DNA from: a virus
Virus genome (UHGV): UHGV-1364441
DNA: 64,000 nt
Reading direction: 5' to 3' (one strand)
Shown here one piece after another: positions 2,887 through 28,122 of the stretch; position 1 is the stretch's first letter, and every line of letters begins with the position of its first letter. The notes under the pieces were generated by a model. That model did no database searches. It was not told the origin of the DNA and saw only the letters and a program-made list of their open reading frames with translations. A program made the position numbers and the translations under genes.

Positions 2887-4317
2887 TTACGGGTAAGAAA
2901 TGCTGAACGTTGAAGATTTCACGTCAAGATAAATGAAGTCATTAAAGTAAACAGCATCTTTCATATTTTGTATTGTTATGTCGTAAGACAGAAACATATC
3001 CAGAGACTCTATTACTCGCCAAATATCTTTAACTTTTACCTGTGCATAACATTGCTGGGAATCATCATCACTCTGTAGTAATAAACTGAATGATGACGAA
3101 TCACGGCCAAAATTATCTTCCAACGCTGCTTTAATAGCATTTTGAGCATCGTCTATCAGAACATTTTTACGTGCAATACCTATAAAATTTATAGTAAATG
3201 GCTGTTCATTTGTATCTACATACTCGAACCGCTTGTTCAACTCATTTGGAACATTCTCTAGAGCTTTCAGTATTTCTGATTTTAGCTGAGCCTGGCTTAC
3301 ACCCGGCTTATGTCCGCAAAAGAAAATTTTGTTGATGTTTCGAACGTCAAACCCAGTTATTTTCTCTTGTAACGCTTCGCCCCAAACGTTCAACCATGAA
3401 GTTCCATGAACAACATTCTGAATGAATTGGCGATAATCACCGCCCCATACCACTTGTTCATCGTATGCAACATAATACTGAGCACGATTTCGAGTTTCTT
3501 CTGTAGTTTCCATACCACTACCACCGGTAATGATCGAATCAGTTTTAAACTCAAGTGACTCCACATATTGAGCGATATTTCCAGCCGGTTCTAACTTTTG
3601 TCCTTCAGCCAAAGTATAGTCGCCAAGGCTAGCCATAACATCGATTCGAACCTGACAGCCTGCTGGAGGCATCATACCCATAGAACCATCACCAAACTTG
3701 ACTCCAAGTTGTTCTGTAGGTTTATATGCCAATGAATAGTGCTTACTCTTGTCTCTGGACATTCTAAATAATGGGTTATATGTCCATTTTTCTTCTACGC
3801 CATCTGTAATAACATAAACATCCAGGCTAGAGACTTCTTTTGTTAACTCTCTGGAAAGCAACAATGTCAGAAATAAAGTTTCCTTCTCAATATCAAATGT
3901 AACGCTAACAGCTTCATGCTGTTTAGTTTCTACGCCAGAAACTGTTCCTCCAGCAGGAATTACAACACTGTTAATAATTGCCAAAGGTGTTTGGTCATTG
4001 GCAAGCAATTCAGCCCCGGCTGGTAATGTAATATCCCGATCAGTTTTATTGGTTATAGACGTTGTTCCGTATGAAGCACTAACAAATCGCCCTACGTAGC
4101 TACGATCTTCAGCAACCGCTAAAATACTTGAGCGGCGCGTAGCCGTTGAAATAAGTCCCTCAGTGAGGCCGCGGCTTGCAAATGTACGGGCAATATAAAT
4201 AAGCTGTGATCCGAATATAGCGTGCATCTGCACAAACTGACTATTTACAAATCGTGACCACCATGTGTTTTCATTTAACTTAGCGTTAAATTTGTCCAGT
4301 AATTCTGTAATCGTCAC
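2887..4317 (-). CDS. putative baseplate J-like protein
   Basis: 476-aa ORF, size and position typical of baseplate J/gp47-like wedge protein in W-J-I-fibre order; 4-bp overlap with upstream gene. Confidence 0.5.
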   Translation of the reverse strand: MTITELLDKFNAKLNENTWWSRFVNSQFVQMHAIFGSQLIYIARTFASRGLTEGLISTATRRSSILAVAEDRSYVGRFVSASYGTTSITNKTDRDITLPAGAELLANDQTPLAIINSVVIPAGGTVSGVETKQHEAVSVTFDIEKETLFLTLLLSRELTKEVSSLDVYVITDGVEEKWTYNPLFRMSRDKSKHYSLAYKPTEQLGVKFGDGSMGMMPPAGCQVRIDVMASLGDYTLAEGQKLEPAGNIAQYVESLEFKTDSIITGGSGMETTEETRNRAQYYVAYDEQVVWGGDYRQFIQNVVHGTSWLNVWGEALQEKITGFDVRNINKIFFCGHKPGVSQAQLKSEILKALENVPNELNKRFEYVDTNEQPFTINFIGIARKNVLIDDAQNAIKAALEDNFGRDSSSFSLLLQSDDDSQQCYAQVKVKDIWRVIESLDMFLSYDITIQNMKDAVYFNDFIYLDVKSSTFSISYP

Positions 4318-4688
4318 GCGCCCACCCCACTTGATTTCTGCATAACAATATCCATGCTCCCACCTTTCGCATAAAAACTAATTAATAAAGAATCTTCAGA
4401 AATTGATGTGCAACGAATCCCCTGCACATCCAAACCTGGCAAGTCTTGCCGTAGTTTTTTCATCATTCTCCCTTCAATAGCCACTTCAACTATGTGCGAA
4501 GTTTCAGAGCCGAATGGTTCATGCTTAAATTCTTCCATTGGATTCCCCCAAGAGGGTAAACCATAAACACTCCCTTCAGGGGTTCGTAACCACTCGTCAA
4601 GTCGGGCCATCCATGCTGCGGTACTTCCTTCTGCAATAATGACACCGCTCTCATTCGTTTGAAGTCTTGCGTCTATTTCATAAAGCAT
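4314..4688 (-). CDS. putative baseplate W / gp25-like protein
   Basis: 124-aa ORF immediately upstream of J-like gene; size and order consistent with gpW/gp25 family. Confidence 0.45.
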   Translation of the reverse strand: MLYEIDARLQTNESGVIIAEGSTAAWMARLDEWLRTPEGSVYGLPSWGNPMEEFKHEPFGSETSHIVEVAIEGRMMKKLRQDLPGLDVQGIRCTSISEDSLLISFYAKGGSMDIVMQKSSGVGA

Positions 4689-4693
4689 CTGTA

Positions 4694-7600
4694 TTAATCC
4701 TCAAGCAGAGCATCCAGCGACGGGTCATTAATAGTTGTGCTAGCACGTGGTCGCGGTTGCGGCTGCGATGTTTTGACAACCTTATCCGGATCGCCTTTTG
4801 TATTGTTCTTGTTCACATTCAGAAGATCGTTCAGGATAGAGCAGATGTTATCCAGCGCCTTCAACATAGCAGGATCGTTATTTATAGTGTCAGTAGTTAA
4901 TGGTTGTCTTATTCCGCTTCGTGCGAGATCTGTTACAGTAGGAAGCTGTGGTGGCATAGCAAGAAAAGGTTCTTGCACAGCTGAAGCAGAGCCAAATATG
5001 GCGTTATTGGCACCAGTTGCTATTCCCCTAATGCTATTAGCGGTTTGTTGAATCCCCCCATTCAGCCAGTCTCCAACATTTCTTGTTAATGGGCTAATAG
5101 CTCGCGCAATCGCACTATTCTGTCCAGTAGACTGCATTACAAGATCGTTCAATATCCCTGTACTATCAATCCCCCCAACAAGTCGTGAAAGGTTATCGCC
5201 AACGGCAGGAATTACTGCGGTTCCTGTCTGTTTAAGCCCTGACACCGTGGAATCAAATAGCGAACCAAAGAAGCTCTTATCCTCACCTGTAACCACCTTG
5301 TAGCCGTTGTCATAAATCTGCACATCACTTGGTGCCGTGATAGTTCGTTTTCCAGAGGTAACTACTGGCGCAGCTCCCGCCATAGCCTGGTTGATTGCTA
5401 GAGCCTGCTCCTGCTGTGGAGTTTTCGGTGCTGGCGCTGCAGACGAAAAGCCCTCCATAGCCTGGCTGATTGCCAGAGCCTGCTCCTGCTGTGGAGTTTT
5501 CGGAGTAGAAGGGGATACTTGATCTCCCGGAAGTAGATCAATGATTTCTGTATCGTGATTAACAGTGCGTTTTTGTTGTATGGCTGTTGCGATATCAGCC
5601 ACTTGAGAAGCTTTTTTAAATCCAAAAGATTTACCGGTTAAGCCGGATATCTTTTCAGTAAGAGCCTGATCCATTCCTTTCGCTTTTTCGGAAAGCGAAG
5701 ATATAGAACCAAACGAAGTAGCTAACGCAAAATCCTTTCCCAGGTCCAGACTTGTTCCAGCAAGGCTGGTAGCCGCGCCGCCAAATAAATTACTTGCACC
5801 ACTGATTCCGCTTTCATTTATTGTGATTAACCGCTCAAGCAAACTCGATGGAAAGCCGGTATTAACATCAGCGTTCTCTGGATTAATCGGTTGTGGTTGG
5901 TTACCTGTTTTTTGTGGCTTTTTGGCGGCCTGGGCATGTTGTGCAACTTCAATTGGCTTAGGTGTTGCTGTTGGAACTGCATTCAATACAGGTTGTGCTG
6001 GAGATGTACCATCAGCATATTTCACCTTGCGACCAACGCTATATTGCGAATCACGAGCAATTAGTTGACCACCATTCTCTTGCTGAATTTTATTAAGCCG
6101 CGCCAATGTTTCATCGGAGAACCGCCCTTCCCAACGACCAGTATTTGCGTTGAATGCCCCAAGAGCATTCTTTATGAACTCATTGTTAACCGCCGGGTTT
6201 CCACCTTCTTTCGTCGCTATTGCACGAACTAATTGCGTCATAACCTCTGGGTTGCTGACGTCTATTTTTTCATTAGGCGAGACGCCAAGATATTTACTGA
6301 CGTTATCAATATATTGATTGGTATTGTTCTCATTTGGCGGCGCCCATTTGGAAATGATGCTTGATACCGTCTGTAACTTCTGATGTCCTGCTGCGGCACT
6401 GGTGCCGTTGTAATAGCTTGACACTTGGTTTGCCAACGCCCTGATCCCTTCTTCAGGTGTGTTAAATCGCGCAAAACGTTGTTCACCTTTTGCATTTGGC
6501 GATTCCAGCGTCGCCCCTTCCTGGTTGGCAAAAACAAGATTGCCGAGATTATTATTTCGGTAATTGCGGTTTTTAGCGTTGCTGCCGCCAATATTCAGAT
6601 CCGCTGCAATGGTGTTGTTGGCAGGTGCACTAAATTCTGTTGGAGAAGTATACCCGTGCTCACCAACTCCATCCTCGCCATTACGCCCACCTTGTAATTG
6701 TTCACCAAGAGAATGAATCGCATCGACAGTTTTTTTTGTGCCGTCTTCAACAGCTTTTTTTACTTGTTTCGTGTTTTCGTCAGTGGATAAAAATGTATCC
6801 TTAAGGTTACCAAAAACAGATTTGGTGATATCTACCGCGCCGTTAACACCACGAGCAATATCTCCGGTATCAAAATTCTGAAGTTTTTCACCTGCTCTTT
6901 CAAATCCTAGCGCAGAAATTCCTTTCCCTATCAAGTTCGTTGCGCCCGACACCAAGCCCCCCATATCGAGCACATTAGCTGTTGCGTAAGCCGTTTTTTG
7001 CTGTTCGGATACAGCATCATCGTCACTTAATCCAAAGGCTGCCTTTTGCGCATCTGTATCAGTGTAACCATCTATAGCGTCATATCCCGCCATAGCCAGC
7101 GATCCGATGATCGGGATAGCTCTTGCAGCTGTAGAAGCAGCTGATTTAACACCTATTTTTGCAGCACTTTTGAGGGCTACGGATTCGGTTTTTTTCTTTG
7201 CAACAGTTTCACCTGTTTTAATTGTGGCCTCTTCGGCAACAACACCTGCTGGCTTAACTGCCTTTGCTGTGTTTTTTGTTTCTTTAGCAATACCCTTAGA
7301 TGCGTCGCTTGTGGTGCTGATGTCTTTGGCTTTACTAACCTTTGTTTTAACAGTCTTTGCAGCTCCGGCACCAGCTCCAGCAGCAGCGGTTCCGGCAGCG
7401 GCTTTTTCACCAACAGAAAGGGCTTTTTTCCCCAGATTGCGACCTTTCCTTTTCGGTTTGTTCCGTTTATTTTTACCAGCCTGATCGCCAATATTGATTT
7501 TATTTCTTCTGCTTGCTCGATTTCTCCAGAGATCACTTAAGCCGAACTTATTCCCAGAAGATACTGATTTGCGTAGCTTAACTACTTCGTCGGAGACATT

Positions 7601-8638
7601 TTCCAGACCATCAATTATTTTGTTGTCATTGGTCTGAAGAATTTTTGTTTGCTCTTCTACTGCTTGTGCTGATTTTGTCTCAACAGCATTATTAAATGCT
7701 GTTGCAGAGGTTGCTTTTTGAGTATTCACCACCGCCGGATAAGTGATAGCTGGTGATGTCGCTTTCGAAGATAAAGCCTCACCTTTCCCCTTTTCTACCC
7801 ATTCTTTAAGAGATTCTGCTTTACCTGTGATCTCTTTAGTAATGTCGTACATGCCGCGAGCAGCCATCCACAACGGACCACCAGCGCCGACACCTGCGGC
7901 ATCTGTTAAAGACTCTTCACTGGAAGACTGATTGCCATCTACCCCTATAATGGAGCCTAATTTCCGGAGGAAGCCTTCTTGTAGTTTGGCGTCGGCCTTA
8001 CGTGCGTTCTGCCATTCTTTTTTTCTGGCTATATCTTCGTTGTTTTTCTGGGATACAAAGCGTCCATTACTATCCCGAAGCGGTCCTTTTTGGCTTTGGG
8101 GGGATTGTGGTTCAAGAGGAGCAGAATTAGCGGCTACTGGCACAGAACCTTTCAACTTTTGGGCGGACTGGCGTGATGACGCAAAATGAACGCGCTCTGA
8201 TGTGTTGGTTGCAACAATGAGACGTTCTTCTCCGTTGTTGACCTGCGTCCTCCCTTTTTTCATCGGAAGGCGTTTTATATATGGGTTAGCTTGGGTATTC
8301 TTGGCATCACCAGAGACATAGGGTTCGCTTGCTATGCGTCTACGGGATAGTCTTTGACTTACTTTACCTTGATTTTCACCAAGTTGAGTTATAGACCCTC
8401 TATCAGAGAGAATGGCGTTTTTGATCTCAGCAAGAGCCTTAAGTTCGTTTGTGCTCGCCCCCTGTATAGCGTCAATTATTGCGATACGGTCTTTATTCTC
8501 TTTCAAAATAACCTCTCTTTTGCCAGCGCGATCAACGTTTCCCGGCTTGAGCTTTGTATTTTTCTTCCAGGGCTTTTGACATATGGAGTGCTCGCCATTG
8601 CGGTAATTGTTCAACGTCGCTAACGGGCTGATATCCAT
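4694..8638 (-). CDS. large tail protein (tape-measure / P1 Sit-like by size and position)
   Basis: 1314-aa ORF, Ala/Gly/Lys-rich with internal duplicated segment (QALAISQAMEGF...QALAINQAMAGA), upstream of baseplate genes; I could not confirm a lytic transglycosylase motif. Confidence 0.55.
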   Translation of the reverse strand: MDISPLATLNNYRNGEHSICQKPWKKNTKLKPGNVDRAGKREVILKENKDRIAIIDAIQGASTNELKALAEIKNAILSDRGSITQLGENQGKVSQRLSRRRIASEPYVSGDAKNTQANPYIKRLPMKKGRTQVNNGEERLIVATNTSERVHFASSRQSAQKLKGSVPVAANSAPLEPQSPQSQKGPLRDSNGRFVSQKNNEDIARKKEWQNARKADAKLQEGFLRKLGSIIGVDGNQSSSEESLTDAAGVGAGGPLWMAARGMYDITKEITGKAESLKEWVEKGKGEALSSKATSPAITYPAVVNTQKATSATAFNNAVETKSAQAVEEQTKILQTNDNKIIDGLENVSDEVVKLRKSVSSGNKFGLSDLWRNRASRRNKINIGDQAGKNKRNKPKRKGRNLGKKALSVGEKAAAGTAAAGAGAGAAKTVKTKVSKAKDISTTSDASKGIAKETKNTAKAVKPAGVVAEEATIKTGETVAKKKTESVALKSAAKIGVKSAASTAARAIPIIGSLAMAGYDAIDGYTDTDAQKAAFGLSDDDAVSEQQKTAYATANVLDMGGLVSGATNLIGKGISALGFERAGEKLQNFDTGDIARGVNGAVDITKSVFGNLKDTFLSTDENTKQVKKAVEDGTKKTVDAIHSLGEQLQGGRNGEDGVGEHGYTSPTEFSAPANNTIAADLNIGGSNAKNRNYRNNNLGNLVFANQEGATLESPNAKGEQRFARFNTPEEGIRALANQVSSYYNGTSAAAGHQKLQTVSSIISKWAPPNENNTNQYIDNVSKYLGVSPNEKIDVSNPEVMTQLVRAIATKEGGNPAVNNEFIKNALGAFNANTGRWEGRFSDETLARLNKIQQENGGQLIARDSQYSVGRKVKYADGTSPAQPVLNAVPTATPKPIEVAQHAQAAKKPQKTGNQPQPINPENADVNTGFPSSLLERLITINESGISGASNLFGGAATSLAGTSLDLGKDFALATSFGSISSLSEKAKGMDQALTEKISGLTGKSFGFKKASQVADIATAIQQKRTVNHDTEIIDLLPGDQVSPSTPKTPQQEQALAISQAMEGFSSAAPAPKTPQQEQALAINQAMAGAAPVVTSGKRTITAPSDVQIYDNGYKVVTGEDKSFFGSLFDSTVSGLKQTGTAVIPAVGDNLSRLVGGIDSTGILNDLVMQSTGQNSAIARAISPLTRNVGDWLNGGIQQTANSIRGIATGANNAIFGSASAVQEPFLAMPPQLPTVTDLARSGIRQPLTTDTINNDPAMLKALDNICSILNDLLNVNKNNTKGDPDKVVKTSQPQPRPRASTTINDPSLDALLED

Positions 8639-8652
8639 ATAGAGTCAGGTTG

Positions 8653-9474
8653 TTAATAATGGTTAGCCATCCATTCAGATCTAATTGATGGGATAAACTC
8701 TCTATTGAGAAAGGGGACGTACAGTGTGGTTGTCACATCTGCACCCTCCTTAGCGTTTTTGCAATGTTGCGGAGGCAGGATCAGTCGGCTTGTGCCTCTC
8801 TCAATAGACATTTTCAGGCCGTGGCGTAGGTCTTTTTGCATAAGCTGTATGCGAGCCACAAGCGGAGTAAATTCGGTTTCAAGCGCCATGCTTTCAATGA
8901 TGTCAAAGCGTCGGTTAGCGGCCTGCGTGAAGTCCTCCGGATCGTCTTCAAGCGCCGTGCATAAAGCGAGTTCAGCAATTCGCATCCGTGCCACGCCAGC
9001 ACTGTATTCGGGGCTTTTCATATCAGGAAGTGACGCTCGCATTCGTTCAAGGAGTTCCGCGCCTTTCCCGGTTAATGGTTTAAGTATCCAGTCAGTTGGT
9101 ACTCCATTTACTGGTACGTTGGTTTTCACGTAAGGAGGTACAGTGAGTATTTCTACTGTTTGGGCCAGGTCGCTCAGGTTAATATCTGCATGATGCGTAT
9201 TACCGCAGTGACTGCACTCATAGGAGTAGGTCATTACTGCATCGGGGCGCGAATTAACAAATATCCACCAAAGAGCAGTTCTGCGATCCTGAACTGTCCA
9301 GTTAGCACTGTCGTTAATTTCACCATCCTGCATAGAGTTAAGGTACTCTGTAGTAGTAGCCTCATCTTCTGCCGGGTTCAGGTCAGAATATTTCAGCGCA
9401 TCCTTCACGGTAGGTGCGTGGAACTGAATTTCTGTCTCAGGACGGGAAGGCAATGGGAATTTTGGAATGTTCAA
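8653..9474 (-). CDS. hypothetical tail-associated protein
   Basis: 273-aa ORF heading the minus-strand tail operon; contains CSHCGNTHH Cys/His cluster. Confidence 0.45.
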   Translation of the reverse strand: MNIPKFPLPSRPETEIQFHAPTVKDALKYSDLNPAEDEATTTEYLNSMQDGEINDSANWTVQDRRTALWWIFVNSRPDAVMTYSYECSHCGNTHHADINLSDLAQTVEILTVPPYVKTNVPVNGVPTDWILKPLTGKGAELLERMRASLPDMKSPEYSAGVARMRIAELALCTALEDDPEDFTQAANRRFDIIESMALETEFTPLVARIQLMQKDLRHGLKMSIERGTSRLILPPQHCKNAKEGADVTTTLYVPFLNREFIPSIRSEWMANHY

Positions 9475-9569
9475 TTATTCCTCCGAAAAGCAGGTATCTG
9501 TTCATTTTCCAGAGGATAGGGAGTGTGTGATTTGCGATGGGGATTGAATGAAGATCTTTGCCGGTCGAG

Positions 9570-9839
9570 AAGCGATTATTGAGGGTGATTTTTACACCTT
9601 AAGTGACGCTACTCACATATCCACAGAGTATTTTTATAAACCTTTTTCCATTTTTAATCCTTTTTAGATCCTTTTTAGGCGTCGCTGGAGCCAGTAGTGG
9701 CGCGGGCTGTAGAGGAGGCTGGTGTAAGATTTGCCCTCAATTAAATACGATCGGTGTAAGATTTGCCCTCAAAAGGTGTAAGATTTGCCCTCAAAAGGTG
9801 TAGTAATTGCCCTCAAAGTGATGTAAAAATTGCCCTCAC
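9570..9839. repeat. iteron array upstream of rep gene (one inverted copy at 9570-9589, five direct ~20-bp copies at 9721-9839)
   Basis: ggtgtaagatttgccctcaa x3, ggtgtagtaattgccctcaa, gatgtaaaaattgccctcac; shares the ATTTGCCCTCA core I recall from F plasmid ori2 iterons. Confidence 0.8.
9611..9700. promoter_or_regulatory. origin-proximal AT-rich region with DnaA-box-like sequence (ATATCCACAG)
   Basis: catatccacagagtatttttataaacctttttccatttttaatcc; lies between an inverted iteron copy and the direct iteron array. Confidence 0.4.
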
Positions 9840-9862
9840 CATTTGAAGGATCACACAGGGTT

Positions 9863-10618
9863 ATGAACAGAGCGGAATTAACAGCAAAAGCCGTCAGCCT
9901 GATTGAGTCAGCGACACCTATTAGTCGTAGTTTGGCACAAGCCAATGAGATCACGGAGGCTGCTTATCACCTGACTCGCGACCAAAAGCGACTGTTGTTT
10001 ATTGTGGTGGGAAGACTTCGCTATGCTTCTAAGGATGGCGTTCTTGGTTCAGGTGCCTGTGAGTTGACGGTCAACGAATATGCAGAGATGTATAATTTGC
10101 CCTCTGCTGAAGCCAGCAAGGATATTCGTAAGGCCATTTCAGGGCTTAGCGAGAAGAAAGTTACGATATATAACCCTGATGAATCGACCGAATCAGAAGA
10201 CAGTTATGAGTCTTATCCTTGGATGATTAAGGATGCCTATTCACCACGGCGCGGGACTTACATTATTCATCTTAATCCATATCTCATGCCGTTTTTTACT
10301 CTGCTTGATAAGAGATTCACAAGGCTGAATTTTACCGAAGTATCTCGCCTTACAAATCCTTATTCTATGCGGCTTTATGAGTCCTTATGCCAGTACAGGA
10401 AGGATGATGGAAGCGGCTTTGCCATACTTGGCGTCGAATGGATGCGGGAGCGTTATGGGTTACCAAAAAGCTATCAGCGGTATGCCGAATTTAAGAGAAG
10501 TTTTTTAACGAAGGCTGTAGCAGAGATTGAAAAAAATACAAAAATGAAAATAGTCTTCTCAGAGGTGACGGAAGGCGGCAAAGTTACCAGGATAAAATTT
10601 ACCTATCAGCAGTCTTAA
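9863..10618 (+). CDS. repE: RepE/RepA-family (Rep_3) iteron-binding replication initiator
   Basis: Protein aligns along most of its length with F plasmid RepE as I recall it (TEAAY.L.RDQKR, AEASKDIR, YESxPW.IK, NPY.MRLYESLCQYRK.DGSG, LP.SYQR); start taken at MNRAEL (ORF track starts 9830). Confidence 0.9.
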   Translation: MNRAELTAKAVSLIESATPISRSLAQANEITEAAYHLTRDQKRLLFIVVGRLRYASKDGVLGSGACELTVNEYAEMYNLPSAEASKDIRKAISGLSEKKVTIYNPDESTESEDSYESYPWMIKDAYSPRRGTYIIHLNPYLMPFFTLLDKRFTRLNFTEVSRLTNPYSMRLYESLCQYRKDDGSGFAILGVEWMRERYGLPKSYQRYAEFKRSFLTKAVAEIEKNTKMKIVFSEVTEGGKVTRIKFTYQQS

Positions 10619-22525: not shown

Positions 22526-22740
22526 CCTTTTTGGTGTTAAAATGGCATCAAAGCGACACCAAATGGGAGTCGTTAATGTACTGGTGCATACTTGGTGCTA
22601 ATTTAGTGCTATTCAGGCGCAAAACGTGTACCAGTATCCATCGGATTTGATGTTATAGTTCCGGCATTAAGAATGGTGCTATTGCTGTACCGTTGATGTG
22701 TAAATGTGGTGCCGTTTTAGTGTAAAAATAGAGCCAAAAT
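22526..22740. repeat. array of degenerate TGGTGC / GGTACA hexamer-like boxes upstream of parA (putative second centromere/promoter)
   Basis: tttttggtgtta, gacaccaaa, tactggtgca, ttggtgcta, gtgtaccag, atggtgcta, gctgtaccg, tggtgccg; similar boxes recur at 23715-23800 and 19745-19830. Confidence 0.4.
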
Positions 22741-22751
22741 AAAGCCGAGGT

Positions 22752-23399
22752 ATGGACATGATTATCCTGGTAGCAAGTCAAAAGGGAGGCTGTGGCAAGT
22801 CAACCACCAGCGTCAATATTTGTGCCGAGCTGGCCCGAAAAAACAAAGATGTCGTCTTGATTGATGCTGATAAGCAGGGAACGGCAGCTCGATGGGCGTC
22901 AGACCGTAATTCGTCCGAAGTGACACCAGTTATTCATTGCGTCCAGAAGTTTGGAAATATTCGAGAAACTCTGCTCGATCTTAACAATCGATATGAATAC
23001 GTGGTTGTTGATACCGCAGGTCGTGATAGTAAAGAGATGCGCACAGGTATAACGGCGGCGGATATTCTATTGGTTCCATTCAGGCCGTCTCAGCCAGATT
23101 TGGACACGCTGGCACACTTTGTTGAGGTGTTTGAAGAGGCTTTGGATCTGATGCCTAATCCCAATATTAAGGCGTGCGCAGTCTTAACGATGGCCCCGTC
23201 AAATCCGGTTGTGAATGAAGCAAATGAGGCCAAAGAGTATCTGGCAGAATATCCGCAACTGAAATTGCTGAAAACCATTATTCGCGATCGCAAGGTTTAC
23301 CGCGACTGCATGGCTGAAGGAAAGGGTGTTGTTGAGATGGATAACGGTAAGGCGAAAGGTGAAATTCAGATGTTAGTTAAGGAGTTGCTAAGTGATTAA
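22752..23399 (+). CDS. parA: small ParA-family (type Ib) partition ATPase
   Basis: Deviant Walker A KGGCGKST, ~215 aa, followed by a small overlapping gene. Confidence 0.85.
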   Translation: MDMIILVASQKGGCGKSTTSVNICAELARKNKDVVLIDADKQGTAARWASDRNSSEVTPVIHCVQKFGNIRETLLDLNNRYEYVVVDTAGRDSKEMRTGITAADILLVPFRPSQPDLDTLAHFVEVFEEALDLMPNPNIKACAVLTMAPSNPVVNEANEAKEYLAEYPQLKLLKTIIRDRKVYRDCMAEGKGVVEMDNGKAKGEIQMLVKELLSD

Positions 23400-23676
23400 A
23401 CGTCGAGAACCAGCTAAAGCGCCTAAGGCTACTGATCCGGAACTTGAGCGAAGAATTGAAGAGTTCGCCAGCAAAGCGGATTTAATCCCGGATGAAATTA
23501 CAACGGGGAAGGTGCTTGATAAAGATGCGCCGCGCGACTTTAAATCCATACGCGTGAGCTTTAATGAATATGAGTACGGCGTACTCGATGATTTAAGCAA
23601 AAAACTGAACCGCAGCAAATTGAACTTGATTCGGCATGCAATCCTCATGTTAGCGGAGTCTGAGGAAGCAAAATAA
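23392..23676 (+). CDS. ParG-like small centromere-binding partner of ParA
   Basis: 94-aa gene, GTG start overlapping parA stop with AAGGAG RBS; basic N-terminus and C-terminal RHH-like segment (NLIRHAILMLAE). Confidence 0.5.
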   Translation: MIKRREPAKAPKATDPELERRIEEFASKADLIPDEITTGKVLDKDAPRDFKSIRVSFNEYEYGVLDDLSKKLNRSKLNLIRHAILMLAESEEAK

Positions 23677-23944
23677 TGTCTTTCAGGTTGGTTTTAGAAC
23701 TTAAAAATTCTTGAATCAAAGGTGTACCAATGTAGCACCGATTTGGTGCACCTTTACATCCTTTTTGGTGCCAATTGTGTACCATATAGCACTGGTTTAC
23801 TTATGAGCAGAAGTGGGCTTGATGAAAAAGCTCATTATTGAAATAACGATAGAAAGCAATTTCTAATCAACTAGTGGTTGTCAGCCTATTCGGCTTATAA
23901 GATCATACGCTGTTATACGTTTTTTACGCTTTGAGGAATCCACA

Positions 23945-25606
23945 ATGAGTGAGGCAGAAGCCCGCCCGACTAACTTTATTCGTCAGATCATCGATGAAGA
24001 TCTGGCAAGTGGTAAGCACACCACAGTACATACCCGTTTCCCGCCGGAACCGAATGGCTATCTGCATATTGGTCATGCGAAATCTATCTGCCTGAACTTC
24101 GGGATCGCCCAGGACTATAAAGGCCAGTGCAACCTGCGTTTCGACGACACTAACCCGGTAAAAGAAGATATCGAGTACGTCGAGTCGATTAAAAACGACG
24201 TTGAATGGTTAGGTTTTCACTGGTCTGGTAACGTCCGTTACTCCTCCGATTATTTTGATCAGCTCCACGCCTATGCTGTTGAACTGATCAACAAAGGCCT
24301 GGCGTATGTTGACGAACTGACGCCGGAACAGATCCGCGAATACCGCGGCACCCTGACGCAGCCGGGTAAAAACAGCCCGTACCGCGATCGCAGCGTTGAA
24401 GAGAACCTGGCGCTGTTCGAAAAAATGCGTGCCGGTGGTTTTGAAGAAGGTAAAGCCTGCCTGCGTGCGAAAATCGACATGGCGTCGCCGTTTATCGTGA
24501 TGCGCGATCCGGTGCTGTACCGCATTAAGTTTGCTGAACACCACCAGACTGGCAACAAGTGGTGCATCTACCCGATGTACGACTTCACCCACTGCATCAG
24601 CGATGCGCTGGAAGGTATTACGCACTCTCTGTGTACGCTTGAGTTCCAGGACAACCGTCGCCTGTACGACTGGGTGCTGGACAACATCACCATTCCTGTT
24701 CACCCGCGCCAGTACGAATTCTCGCGCCTGAATCTGGAATACACTGTGATGTCCAAGCGTAAGCTGAACCTGCTGGTGACCGACAAGCACGTTGAAGGCT
24801 GGGATGACCCGCGTATGCCGACCATTTCCGGTCTGCGTCGTCGTGGTTACACTGCGGCTTCTATTCGTGAGTTCTGCAAACGCATCGGCGTGACCAAGCA
24901 GGACAACACCATTGAGATGGCGTCGCTGGAATCCTGCATCCGTGAAGATCTCAACGAAAATGCGCCGCGCGCAATGGCGGTTATCGATCCGGTGAAACTG
25001 GTCATCGAAAACTATCAGGGAGAAGGCGAAATGGTCACCATGCCGAACCATCCAAACAAACCGGAAATGGGTAGCCGTCAGGTGCCGTTTAGCGGTGAGA
25101 TTTGGATCGACCGCGCCGATTTCCGAGAAGAAGCTAACAAGCAGTACAAACGTCTGGTGCTGGGTAAAGAAGTGCGTCTGCGTAATGCTTACGTCATTAA
25201 GGCTGAACGCGTGGAGAAAGATGCCGAAGGCAATATCACCACCATCTTCTGTACTTATGACGCCGACACCTTAAGCAAAGATCCGGCAGATGGTCGTAAA
25301 GTGAAAGGCGTTATTCACTGGGTGAGCGCGGCACATGCGCTGCCGGTTGAAATCCGCCTGTACGATCGTCTGTTCAGCGTGCCGAACCCAGGTGCTGCTG
25401 ATGATTTCCTGTCGGTGATTAACCCGGAATCGCTGGTGATCAAACAGGGTTTTGCTGAACCGTCGCTGAAAGAAGCGGTAGCGGGTAAAGCATTCCAGTT
25501 TGAGCGTGAAGGTTATTTCTGCCTCGACAGCCGCCATTCTACGGCGGAAAAACCGGTATTTAACCGCACCGTTGGGCTGCGTGATACCTGGGCGAAGTTA
25601 GGTTAA
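23945..25606 (+). CDS. glnS: glutaminyl-tRNA synthetase
   Basis: 553-aa protein with class I HIGH ([12 protein letters not shown]) and VMSKR motifs; matches enterobacterial GlnRS essentially end to end from memory; own promoter-like upstream region and terminator. Confidence 0.95.
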
Positions 25607-25632
25607 TAGGTATTTCGCCACATAAAAAAGTA

Positions 25633-25656
25633 AACGCCGCTACTGCGGCGTTTTTT
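25633..25656. terminator. bidirectional rho-independent terminator between convergent glnS and dam-like genes
   Basis: aacgccgc-tact-gcggcgtt flanked by A-run upstream and T-run downstream. Confidence 0.7.
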
Positions 25657-26560
25657 ACTTCATTATTGCAATTATATCGTTAGCAACTACACGTGTTGAC
25701 GCCTTGCAGGACACCGACCGTCTGGCTGCCATATGATGTACTTTAAACCCGTTTCCTTCATATAGTTCACGGATGTTTGGCGCACCACTATTTGTTATCA
25801 CTACCTTAGCGCCGCGCTGGTGGGCTTCCACCAATAGAGATACCAGCCGTTTCTGTTCGTCGAAACGGAAGCTATTTCCTGAATAACTGGTAAACCCTTC
25901 TGTATCCGGCAGCGGTTCATACGGCGGATCGCAAAAAATCACATCGCCTTCACCAGCCGCCTCGATGACGCCAGCAAAGTCACCTGATACAAAGGACGTG
26001 TTTTTGAGTACGTCATCAGCCAAAAATGCCTCCATCTCTGCATGTGGGAAGTAGGGCGCTTTGTATTTGCCATACCCCACGTTGAACTCGCCATTTTGGT
26101 TGTACCGCGTTACGCCATTAAAACAGTGCCGATTAAGGTACAAAAAGGCGGCAGCATGATGTAGCTGGTCATACTTTCCTCTGTTAAATGCCTCACGCAC
26201 TTCGAGGTAAGCGTCAGCGTTGTTGTAATTTTTGAAAAAACTATATGACAGCGTGACGAGCGAATGTCCTTCTCGCTGCAATGTCTGATAGAAGTTAATC
26301 AGGTCACCGTTAATATCATTAAGCAGGTTGTGGCGAAATCCTGCATTCGTAAATACGGAACCGCCACCAACGAATGGTTCTATTAACCGCTTACCGTGTG
26401 GTAGATGCTCAAGCACTGTAGGCAATTCTGAGAATTTACCACCTACCCATTTGAATATCGGACGCTCATATTCATCCGGAGTCCGAATGGTGCGCATATA
26501 GCTAATTTCAGCCATCGTATCCTGTTTTTCTATGGCTATGCGTGCTATAGATTTACTCAT
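25655..26560 (-). CDS. dam: Dam-like DNA adenine methyltransferase
   Basis: FKWVGGK and DPPY motifs, collinear with E. coli Dam; start placed at MSKSIAR (AAGGGGG RBS, overlaps stop of upstream ORF); ORF track starts 26656. Confidence 0.8.
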   Translation of the reverse strand: MSKSIARIAIEKQDTMAEISYMRTIRTPDEYERPIFKWVGGKFSELPTVLEHLPHGKRLIEPFVGGGSVFTNAGFRHNLLNDINGDLINFYQTLQREGHSLVTLSYSFFKNYNNADAYLEVREAFNRGKYDQLHHAAAFLYLNRHCFNGVTRYNQNGEFNVGYGKYKAPYFPHAEMEAFLADDVLKNTSFVSGDFAGVIEAAGEGDVIFCDPPYEPLPDTEGFTSYSGNSFRFDEQKRLVSLLVEAHQRGAKVVITNSGAPNIRELYEGNGFKVHHMAARRSVSCKASTRVVANDIIAIMK

Positions 26561-27305
26561 AGAGCACCCCCTTATTCGCTTCGAAAACTGCCTTTGCGAA
26601 TCCATGTGGAGTAGCACTTCGAAAATTAGCCCTGTCAGGCCCTGGTGGCGCGGCATGGATTCTGTTATCTGGCTTGCCTAATGATTCGTCCATTAGGGCA
26701 TCAGGCATGACAAAGCCCTGGCCGCTCCAGAGGCATGTTTTTTTGGTGTAGTTATCTTCCTGACAATATGCAGTGAAGAAGTAAGGGTGAAAGATGTGAT
26801 CTGGCTTACGCCAGAATGTCGATATTTTGCTGACCGGATTTTCAATCATGTACGGACAACCGATCATCTTTGCAATGTCATAACACTGCCAGACAACCTG
26901 CATTGCTTTGAACTGGAAAACCGGATCTTTATTAGCCTTGTCCGAAAACCAGCGCGCGCCGGAAACAGCCAGGTCAGTACACGGTGGGAACCCGGCCAGA
27001 AACACGATGCGCTGCAAATTCTTACGGAGAAAAGCGTATACTTCATCGCTATCGATGATCGCACTAATACGCGTCAGAACGGCACCTGATTGCATCCGCT
27101 CGTCACTGGTCGATAAGTGCTGTGGATCGACGATAGCGGCATCGACACCGTATTCCAGCCAGGGGGCAACCATTGCCCCCGTAAAATCACAAAGACTCAC
27201 AACAAGCGGTCGGTTATTATCGTTCTGCTTCACCGCCAATGGCCTCCACCAGCGCGTTAAACAGTGCAGATAATTCGCCCGTAAAGAGCACGAAATCAGC
27301 ATCAA
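26553..27305 (-). CDS. short C5 cytosine methyltransferase-like protein (start uncertain)
   Basis: Motif I-like DFTGAM, PC motif GFPPC, ENV-like ENPV; only ~215-250 aa so lacks an obvious target-recognition domain; ATG start would overlap rdgC by ~88 nt, alternative GTG near 27200. Confidence 0.5.
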
Positions 27306-28122
27306 ATCGTTGTGCTACATCCTCCCGGTCGATATCGTCGTTCTGGTCATAGAGATCATCACAGAATGTCAGGGCTTTGATACTCATATCATCGTTGACT
27401 CTGAACGACGCACGGTCCATCCAGTTAATTGCAACGGTCGTAGCTACTTTCCCCGCCTCAATGTGAGACATAATCTCGTCGGACTGTAGATCAACTTTGT
27501 TGCAGCGAACGGCACCACCATTATCGAGCAGACCCTTTAATGTGGCGTCTTCACCTGCTGTAAATCCGGCAGGGAAGCCGCTTTTAAACCACTCGGTCAT
27601 TGTAATCTCCAGCGGTTCGCGTGGTGTGAATGGAATGACAGGCAGGCTGCCGAGCGACTTTCGCAATAAAGCCAGCTGGTCCTCTGCCTTTTTGGCGCTG
27701 CTTGCCTCAACGAATACCAGATGGTTGCTGCGGTCGATCAGGATTTTGGCGAGTGATTTTCTCGTGAACGCGCGAGGCAAAAGTGAATGCAGGACTTCAT
27801 CTTTAAGACTGTCTCTTTCCGTTTTCTTCAGCTTGCGGGCTTGCTCTTCTTCGAGTTTCAGGACTTTTTTCTGCAACTCTTCCTTGAGCACCTGCGAGGG
27901 GAGAATTTTTTCTTCTCGCTTATGCTGTATTAGCAGAAAACCCTGGTATTCATGGGTGAGGTTGTCACCAAGAACAGGTGTCCAACCGACTTTAGCTGTG
28001 TCCTGAGAACCGCAAGGAGTAAACACGAATTTGCTAAGAGCATCGGATACTTCTGCGGCACTCCAGTTAACTTCACGTGAAAGACGATAGATGAAGATGT
28101 TTTTGAAAGCGACTGATCTCAT
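27217..28122 (-). CDS. rdgC: recombination-associated protein RdgC
   Basis: Aligns along full length with E. coli RdgC as recalled ([82 protein letters not shown]). Confidence 0.9.

Follow-up and report, generated by a model that had tools for sequence, protein, structure and literature searches.

A host-type glnS unit with its predicted promoter and terminator on a D6-like phage-plasmid

Aminoacyl-tRNA synthetases are textbook essential chromosomal genes. One of them, the glutaminyl-tRNA synthetase (GlnRS) gene glnS, is known, from annotation and from the literature, as a hallmark of the D6-like phage-plasmids, and the 2018 work of Gilcrease and Casjens is reportedly the reference for orf62 of phage D6 and for D6-like glnS. 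In the D6 GenBank record, orf62 is described as a "glutaminyl-tRNA synthetase, similar to E. coli GlnS", and a 2019 paper, according to which every D6-like genome has glnS, termed it a moron (PMC6799933). A related case is the CysRS of plasmid pBT1 from Salmonella Typhimurium ST313 D23580, an enzyme less active and less stable than its chromosomal counterpart and encoded by a cysS gene that is experimentally essential (PMC6785131). Here we examine the glnS gene of virus genome UHGV-1364441, a stretch of 64,000 nucleotides (hereafter the window, to which positions refer unless another record is named) that belongs, by its sequence, to the D6-like phage-plasmids within the P1 family. Because the presence of glnS was already published, the window itself adds no new discovery; what the analysis adds is the promoter-to-terminator anatomy of the unit with its native terminator, the existence of glnS-less variants, evidence for gene conversion, and independent captures elsewhere. 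A whole temperate phage-plasmid lineage keeps a near-perfect synthetase copy under apparent purifying selection; why it does so is a real question, relevant to the ways in which mobile elements manipulate translation in their hosts or insure it.

The glnS open reading frame (ORF; coordinates of all features are in table 1) encodes a bona fide GlnRS of the ordinary host type. The predicted protein scores 1067.6 bits against the equivalog model TIGR00440 (glnS; cut-off 425.8), its residues 28–551 aligning with model positions 1–524, and it exceeds the cut-offs of PF00749 (tRNA-synt_1c, the catalytic domain) and of PF03950 and PF20974, the two beta-barrel anticodon-binding domains. Both class I motifs are intact, with HIGH at residue 41 and, at residue 268, VMSKR, the form that the KMSKS-type motif has in the E. 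coli enzyme, so that the full-length gene with both signatures claimed by an earlier inspection of the DNA (the sequence-only reading) is borne out. The protein and the crystallised enzyme of E. coli (1O0B) align over their full lengths and differ by three substitutions, and its comparison with the chromosomally encoded K-12 enzyme gives only I112V, D510E, and V552L, all conservative, and the loss of the terminal E554 (...AKLG* in the window, ...AKVGE* in E. coli), that is, ~99.3% identity to the host (E. coli K-12) enzyme. At the DNA level the two genes differ at 62 of 1,662 compared positions; over the first 1,650 nucleotides there are 57 differences, 55 of them synonymous. Such a protein should be catalytically competent, and its gene is probably expressed.

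The cargo extends beyond the coding sequence. The −35 and −10 hexamers upstream of it are those of the K-12 chromosomal glnS promoter, and the Shine-Dalgarno sequence is the same as the chromosomal one; what had been called promoter-like is therefore the glnS promoter itself. Its −10 hexamer contains a Dam site, GATC at 23901–23904, and glnS is derepressed in E. coli by deletion of dam or mutation of the Dam site, according to a passage of PMC11741368 that cites Plumbridge & Soll 1987. At the other end, the terminator that the sequence-only reading had assigned to glnS is found as a GC-rich hairpin of 9 bp (25632–25653) followed by a run of T. A hairpin of the form AAACGCCGC-N4-GCGGCGTTT also lies 3' of glnS on Kluyvera, Pseudescherichia, Enterobacter, and Citrobacter chromosomes, and the same terminator occurs on the chromosome of E. 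coli 19A14, ~80 nucleotides past the glnS stop codon and beyond an insert resembling a repetitive extragenic palindrome (REP). These comparisons indicate that the window terminator is native to glnS, not foreign. Chromosomal glnS of E. coli has the REP-like insert, whereas window positions 25607–25660 lack it, as do other Enterobacteriaceae chromosomes, and the captured unit must therefore come from a REP-less donor or have undergone a later deletion. An Rfam scan of 23300–26000 returned sub-threshold matches only, on the terminator hairpin. The convergent dam gene ends at the glnS terminator too, its stop codon (25655–25657) lying within the T-run.

The junctions with the element delimit this unit closely. 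In E. coli and E. albertii, similarity of the DNA upstream of chromosomal glnS to the window begins at ~23857, just 5' of the −35 hexamer; in E. fergusonii pEF-4, the most divergent plasmid copy, similarity to the window extends from ~23826. The 190 bp that separate orf61 from the captured unit are plasmid-type DNA. On the right, where homology between glnS-bearing and glnS-less plasmids resumes, the final three codons of dam give ...IMK* in the former and ...TLK* in the latter. Homology with the E. coli chromosome is limited to ~23857–25600, taking in the promoter, the leader, the Shine-Dalgarno sequence, and the ORF, and to the native terminator, in agreement with the claim of the sequence-only reading that this is a single captured housekeeping gene within a mobile element and not a chromosomal junction. 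The cargo is thus a complete Escherichia glnS transcription unit, from promoter to terminator (~23850–25660), in a REP-less form.

We compared eight plasmid glnS alleles with six chromosomal ones. All eight plasmid copies share, over their first ~450 nucleotides, a plasmid-specific 5' haplotype that shows 96% identity with each of the E. coli alleles sampled and 94.7% with E. albertii; among its ~20 fixed differences, the only protein changes are V97I, Q106K, and I112V, which the haplotype carries. Flanks were compared for four plasmid copies (window, D6, pZ1323HEC0010-2, and pEF-4), which have the same left and right junctions. A common haplotype and common junctions indicate that the unit was captured once, in an ancestor, from an E. 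coli-like donor. The donor could be placed only that far: an exact/degenerate DNA pattern of the plasmid-type promoter haplotype had no match in 100,044 species-representative genomes, and among the matches listed in a peptide-pattern scan, Escherichia was represented only by E. albertii and one divergent E. coli.

The 3' half of the gene is mosaic. Most plasmid copies resemble there the chromosomal allele of 19A14/NY1601, whereas the 3' half of D6 is of the K-12/O157 type. Compared with K-12, the D6 allele has 36 differences in its first 900 nucleotides and 7 in its last 750 (binomial P = 5.5e-5), and the window allele 30 and 27, respectively. This mosaicism argues for gene conversion with the host glnS. 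The copies on Salmonella-borne plasmids are intact and of the E. coli type, and nothing in them suggests conversion by the glnS of Salmonella, which is divergent. The ratio of non-synonymous to synonymous substitution rates is 0.009–0.03 between plasmid and chromosomal copies and 0.013–0.015 between chromosomal copies, and the 20 nucleotide differences between the glnS genes of the window and of p92_MLI108-2 are all synonymous, the two proteins being identical. Plasmid glnS thus appears to be under strong purifying selection. The glnS of pEF-4 (locus 1225–2889) stands apart from the other D6-like copies, with 75–86 nucleotide differences from all of them and a GlnRS of 554 residues that ends in ...WAKVEG, while its junctions are the same; recombination with the chromosome of an Escherichia other than E. 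coli may have reshaped it.

How general the carriage of glnS is was assessed in PLSDB and other plasmid records, in 5,426 complete E. coli genomes, and in 50,697 phage records. PLSDB contains 107 plasmids with the ParA-like module, 96–100 of which have the glnS left junction. Among the complete E. coli genomes the backbone was found in 82, so that the D6-like lineage is present in ~1.5%; the spacer was of the glnS type in 75 of the 82 and glnS-less in 7. All 82 backbone matches were on plasmids and none was on an E. coli chromosome, which gives no instance of chromosomal integration through glnS homology. Retention thus amounts to ~91% of the lineage, across Escherichia, Salmonella, and Shigella, and because ~9% of the plasmids are without the cassette, the published statement that all D6-like genomes carry glnS (PMC6799933) is slightly too strong. 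In the glnS-less plasmids, window positions 23678–25646 are replaced by ~134 bp with another terminator (AAGCCCC-AGGC-GGGGCTT); examples are E. coli pCUVET20-PYO4.3 (locus 3979–4112), the plasmid of Shigella dysenteriae 93-119 (locus 3966–4099), and five further matches, some of them having flanks 96–98% identical to the window. The gene is therefore dispensable for the element, and these natural variants are ready-made controls for functional tests. Outside this lineage such genes are scarce, in line with the earlier statement that synthetases are rare on temperate phages and plasmids: 149 of 72,556 plasmid records contain any GlnRS homologue, ~102 of these belonging to the D6-like lineage, and D6 alone among cultured phages has a close GlnRS, the other matches in the phage records being huge-phage or metagenomic contigs with <60% amino acid identity.

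Two of the other plasmids deserve attention. In Citrobacter cronae, the conjugative plasmid p.S175-1.4 (98 kb, MOBP/MPF_I) carries cysS and glnS side by side (locus 3331–7155), ~1 kb downstream of a higB toxin gene, and its glnS unit, which extends from promoter to terminator, is ~92% identical to Citrobacter chromosomal glnS. The cysS-glnS arrangement recalls the cysS of pBT1. In Enterobacter ludwigii CM-TZ4, the glnS unit of plasmid unnamed2 (133 kb, locus 4788–10002) likewise extends from promoter to terminator and has ~92% identity with Lelliottia/Enterobacter chromosomes; it adjoins genes for two site-specific integrases and for a toxin of the dinQ type. Judging by these donors and backbones, the two units were captured independently, with nearly the same end points as the D6-like unit, and such convergent captures suggest that the gene has selective value.

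The reading that we favor, with a probability of roughly 0.65, is that the element carries a functional host-type GlnRS gene, expressed from its own promoter and acting through dosage or back-up. An ancestor of the D6-like phage-plasmids would have taken up the glnS unit in a single event, at the short spacer that separates the ParA-like operon from dam. A lysogen would gain a second dose of glnS, and many more doses would be produced during lytic genome amplification, when transiently under-methylated new DNA could further derepress the Dam-sensitive promoter and couple expression to replication. The gene would act through the amount or the back-up of a normal enzyme rather than through altered specificity or drug insensitivity, and our best guess is that the benefit would be to maintain Gln-tRNA(Gln) charging for the element as expression of host genes declines. 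Kept by purifying selection, glnS is a dispensable moron, or cargo gene, that recombines with the chromosomal glnS of the host; its own predicted promoter and terminator and the natural glnS-less plasmids are what such a label implies. Since a constitutive sigma-70 promoter has been kept, expression from the plasmid prophage is to be expected, and the near-identity of the protein to that of the host favors a dosage or back-up role over a toxin-insensitive variant.

Several points weigh against this reading. The expression, enzymatic activity, and benefit of plasmid glnS are deduced from sequence, and in the literature searched we came upon no functional study of D6-like glnS. The cassette is missing from the glnS-less fraction of the lineage, and conversion from the chromosomal copy, itself strongly constrained, could produce part of the signal read as purifying selection. 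The proteins of the element contain 3.9% Gln and are not Gln-rich (the E. coli proteome has ~4.4%), and none of the four tRNA genes found by ARAGORN in the window is a tRNA-Gln gene; there is thus no obvious special demand for GlnRS. Excess GlnRS reportedly leads to mischarging in E. coli, as Swanson et al. are said to have found in 1988, so that extra dosage is not self-evidently beneficial. The same figures count against the proposal of the sequence-only reading that glnS and the four-tRNA array together provide translation support, the tRNA genes being moreover 35 kb away. A Gln-rich phage proteome, considered as a reason for carrying glnS, was ruled out by the Gln content.

A broader extension of the dosage reading, which we consider tentative and on balance rather unlikely, is that a normal glnS unit has been repeatedly selected on mobile elements of Enterobacteriaceae, namely the D6-like phage-plasmids and the above plasmids of Citrobacter (with its cysS) and Enterobacter, because an extra, replication-coupled, Dam-sensitive dose of GlnRS counters an unrecognised stress on Gln-tRNA(Gln) charging. 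Candidate stresses would be a toxin or defence system directed at tRNA-Gln or GlnRS, or host shut-off. If this were true, the housekeeping synthetases borne by plasmids would together make up a general class of genes for counter-defence or fitness that act through dosage.

Among the alternatives to a role in dosage or back-up, the gene might serve plasmid retention by "essential gene addiction", the host coming to rely on plasmid glnS as its chromosomal copy is down-regulated or decays, so that loss of the plasmid is penalised. The precedent is pBT1, whose cysS is essential while the chromosomal cysS is strongly down-regulated (PMC6785131), and the idea put forward in the sequence-only reading had already been raised explicitly for D6-like glnS, by analogy with pBT1 (PMC6799933). 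The position of glnS within the maintenance region, adjoining two partition systems, and the side-by-side cysS and glnS near higB on the Citrobacter plasmid would fit it as well. However, host genomes lend it no support. A glnS match is kept in 5,425 of the 5,426 complete E. coli genomes, at 5,428 chromosomal places versus 81 on plasmids, so that at most a handful of carriers could be without a chromosomal copy, and in MLI108K2, the sole host-plasmid pair checked, chromosomal glnS and the 90 nucleotides upstream, promoter included, are those of K-12. Moreover, D6-like plasmids without glnS persist, the D6-like elements already have the phd-doc and higA-higB toxin-antitoxin systems (PMC6799933), the D6 annotation already lists a RelE-family toxin and HigA antitoxins, and the plasmid enzyme is nearly identical to that of the host, unlike CysRS-pBT1. 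Host dependence on plasmid glnS thus seems to have left no sign at the sequence level, a level at which transcriptional silencing, like that of cysS in D23580, would not show, and we regard this explanation as improbable.

Equally improbable in our view is that glnS is a neutral passenger, captured by chance, hitch-hiking on a successful element and looking conserved through repair from the chromosomal gene. The mosaic alleles do indicate that exchange with the chromosome occurs, the gene is dispensable, and a few degraded plasmid copies exist: in NZ_CP031917.1 the match is in four pieces, and in CP042632.1, where glnS is unannotated, it covers residues 53–553 only. Repair does not readily account, however, for conservation at the protein level of the plasmid-specific 5' haplotype, which is itself non-chromosomal, or for the 20 synonymous versus 0 non-synonymous changes between two plasmid copies. 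The intact, E. coli-type copies without signs of conversion on Salmonella-borne plasmids, the ~91% retention over three genera, and the independent capture of glnS by two other plasmid backbones also argue against mere hitch-hiking. The sequence-only reading had itself named, as a finding that would tell against it, a common and annotated arrangement of documented neutral origin; the arrangement is indeed common, annotated (D6 orf62), and published (PMC6799933), but no neutral origin is on record for it.

Plasmid-borne synthetases are a classic route to resistance or immunity, as with ileS2/mupA for mupirocin and the LeuRS for agrocin 84. By analogy, and as the sequence-only reading had suggested, the extra GlnRS might protect against a toxin, defence system, or inhibitor directed at GlnRS or tRNA-Gln, by titrating the agent or by shielding and recharging tRNA-Gln. 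Purifying selection and convergent captures do imply some benefit. Resistance synthetases, however, diverge from the sensitive enzyme, whereas the window GlnRS shows three conservative substitutions and a one-residue trim, and does not look like a divergent, inhibitor-insensitive paralogue; the neighboring genes give no hint of toxin or antibiotic production, and our literature search linked no natural GlnRS-directed agent to D6-like hosts. Of the earlier suggestion, the insensitive enzyme is thus disfavored, titration by extra dosage being the part that could still apply, and protection as a whole seems a distinctly poor candidate. Lastly, an assembly chimera of chromosomal and plasmid reads, the mis-assembly that the sequence-only reading had wished to exclude, can be virtually dismissed, as phage D6 has the same junctions and so do ~100 complete plasmids of three genera, assembled independently and originating from several countries.

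The surroundings of glnS are those of a D6-like element. The nearest record to the 4.7 kb around the gene is E. coli RL465 plasmid II (99.8% identity), the closest plasmid matches retrieved are of replicon type rep_cluster_1704, and phage D6 is 94.7% identical to window positions 22700–27400 over 99% of their length, with the same gene order and with glnS (orf62) at the same position, between orf61 and dam. Pfam and the D6 annotation identify, upstream of glnS, ParM/StbA, StbB, a ParA-like ATPase, and a small ORF, and downstream, on the minus strand, a D12-class Dam methylase, a second ORF, and RdgC. In the sequence-only reading, glnS was flanked by ParA/ParG-like genes and a Dam/C5-MTase/rdgC operon: the ParA-like, Dam, and RdgC assignments stand, but Pfam gave no match to the small upstream ORF, leaving the label "ParG-like" unconfirmed, and none at E<=0.01 to the ORF that follows dam, leaving "C5-MTase" unconfirmed likewise. 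In some D6-like plasmids, such as E. coli p702_18_3 (locus 4449–6737), a single "Dam family" ORF of 2,289 nucleotides adjoins glnS in place of the separate ORFs of the window, suggesting a fused or alternative methylase module.

D6-like plasmids have one or the other of two divergent allele classes of the ParA-like/orf61 module (22752–23676). Of its 107 records, 91 are only 80–90% identical to the window and 16 are >90% identical, which places the window in the minority class; because glnS-less plasmids have this class too, the presence of glnS is uncoupled from the partition allele. Directly 3' of the ParA-like operon, the plasmid-type intergenic DNA contains two direct repeats of ~27 nucleotides (CAAAGGTGTACCAATGTAGCACCGATTT and CAATTGTGTACCATATAGCACTGGTTT), 54–55 nucleotides apart, and an inverted repeat of 13 nucleotides (AAAGGTGTACCAA/TTGGTGCACCTTT). 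At the same position, glnS-less plasmids have different yet motif-related repeats. From this arrangement the region may be the centromere or operator of the upstream operon. As for the distant tRNA genes, those of the D6-like plasmid pYU39_89 are Asn, Thr, Ser, and Met (PMC6799933), so that the fourth is discrepant, being Arg in the window according to ARAGORN and Asn in that report.

Table 1. Features in and around the glnS unit of the window, with the basis of each assignment
Feature	Position	Strand	Basis or remark
Plasmid-type intergenic DNA left of the captured unit, with repeats	23717..23798		Without K-12 chromosome homology
Left junction zone	23826..23877	+	Chromosomal similarity starts ~23857; pEF-4 similarity starts ~23826
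Predicted native glnS sigma-70 promoter, −35 TTGTCA, 17-nucleotide spacer, −10 GATCAT	23878..23906	+	Scan, K-12 alignment
Shine-Dalgarno GAGGAA, 6 nucleotides 5' of ATG	23933..23938	+	Read from sequence; same as chromosomal
glnS coding sequence, glutamine--tRNA ligase, 553 amino acids	23945..25606	+	ORF, profile matches, alignments
Predicted intrinsic terminator, AAACGCCGC-TACT-GCGGCGTTT and T-run	25632..25659	both strands	Scan, chromosome comparisons
Right junction	25657..25666		Homology of glnS-bearing and glnS-less plasmids resumes at TGCAAT
dam, D12-class	25655-26656	-	Pfam; convergent with glnS
ORF, putative DNA-cytosine methylase in the D6 annotation	26553-27305	-	Pfam: none at E<=0.01
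Four tRNA genes, Met(cat), Ser(tga), Thr(tgt), Arg(tct)	60324-61518	-	ARAGORN

Compared with the systems described so far, the window is closest to D6 orf62 and to D6-like prophages such as pYU39_89, which have the same gene at the same position (orf61-dam) with the same junctions, the D6 GlnRS being 99.3% identical in amino acids. The differences from D6 are allelic only, the 3' half of the window glnS being a different E. coli allele type, and the window differs from the D6-like majority in the minority allele class of its ParA-like module. With the CysRS of pBT1, the window GlnRS shares the situation of a complete class I synthetase on a plasmid beside an intact chromosomal paralogue; it differs in being near-identical to the enzyme of the host and in having natural variants without the gene, and a term search of the supplements of PMC6785131 gave chromosomal glnS rows only and no plasmid-borne glnS. 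As an autonomous cassette of promoter, ORF, and terminator that is dispensable for the phage, the unit resembles phage morons, and through its four tRNA genes the element resembles other members of the P1 family and phages that carry translation components. It is, however, unlike the distant synthetases of huge phages, being a recent host-derived copy without a cognate tRNA-Gln. Resistance and immunity synthetases of the mupA/ileS2 type are strongly divergent, inhibitor-insensitive enzymes; the window glnS is like them in adding a synthetase to a mobile element and unlike them in encoding a protein ~99.3% identical to the housekeeping one. Finally, p.S175-1.4 and CM-TZ4 unnamed2 offer the same kind of event, in that each took up a glnS of chromosomal type from its promoter to its terminator, with end points that nearly coincide with those of the window unit, on different backbones and from different donors, the Citrobacter plasmid carrying cysS as well.

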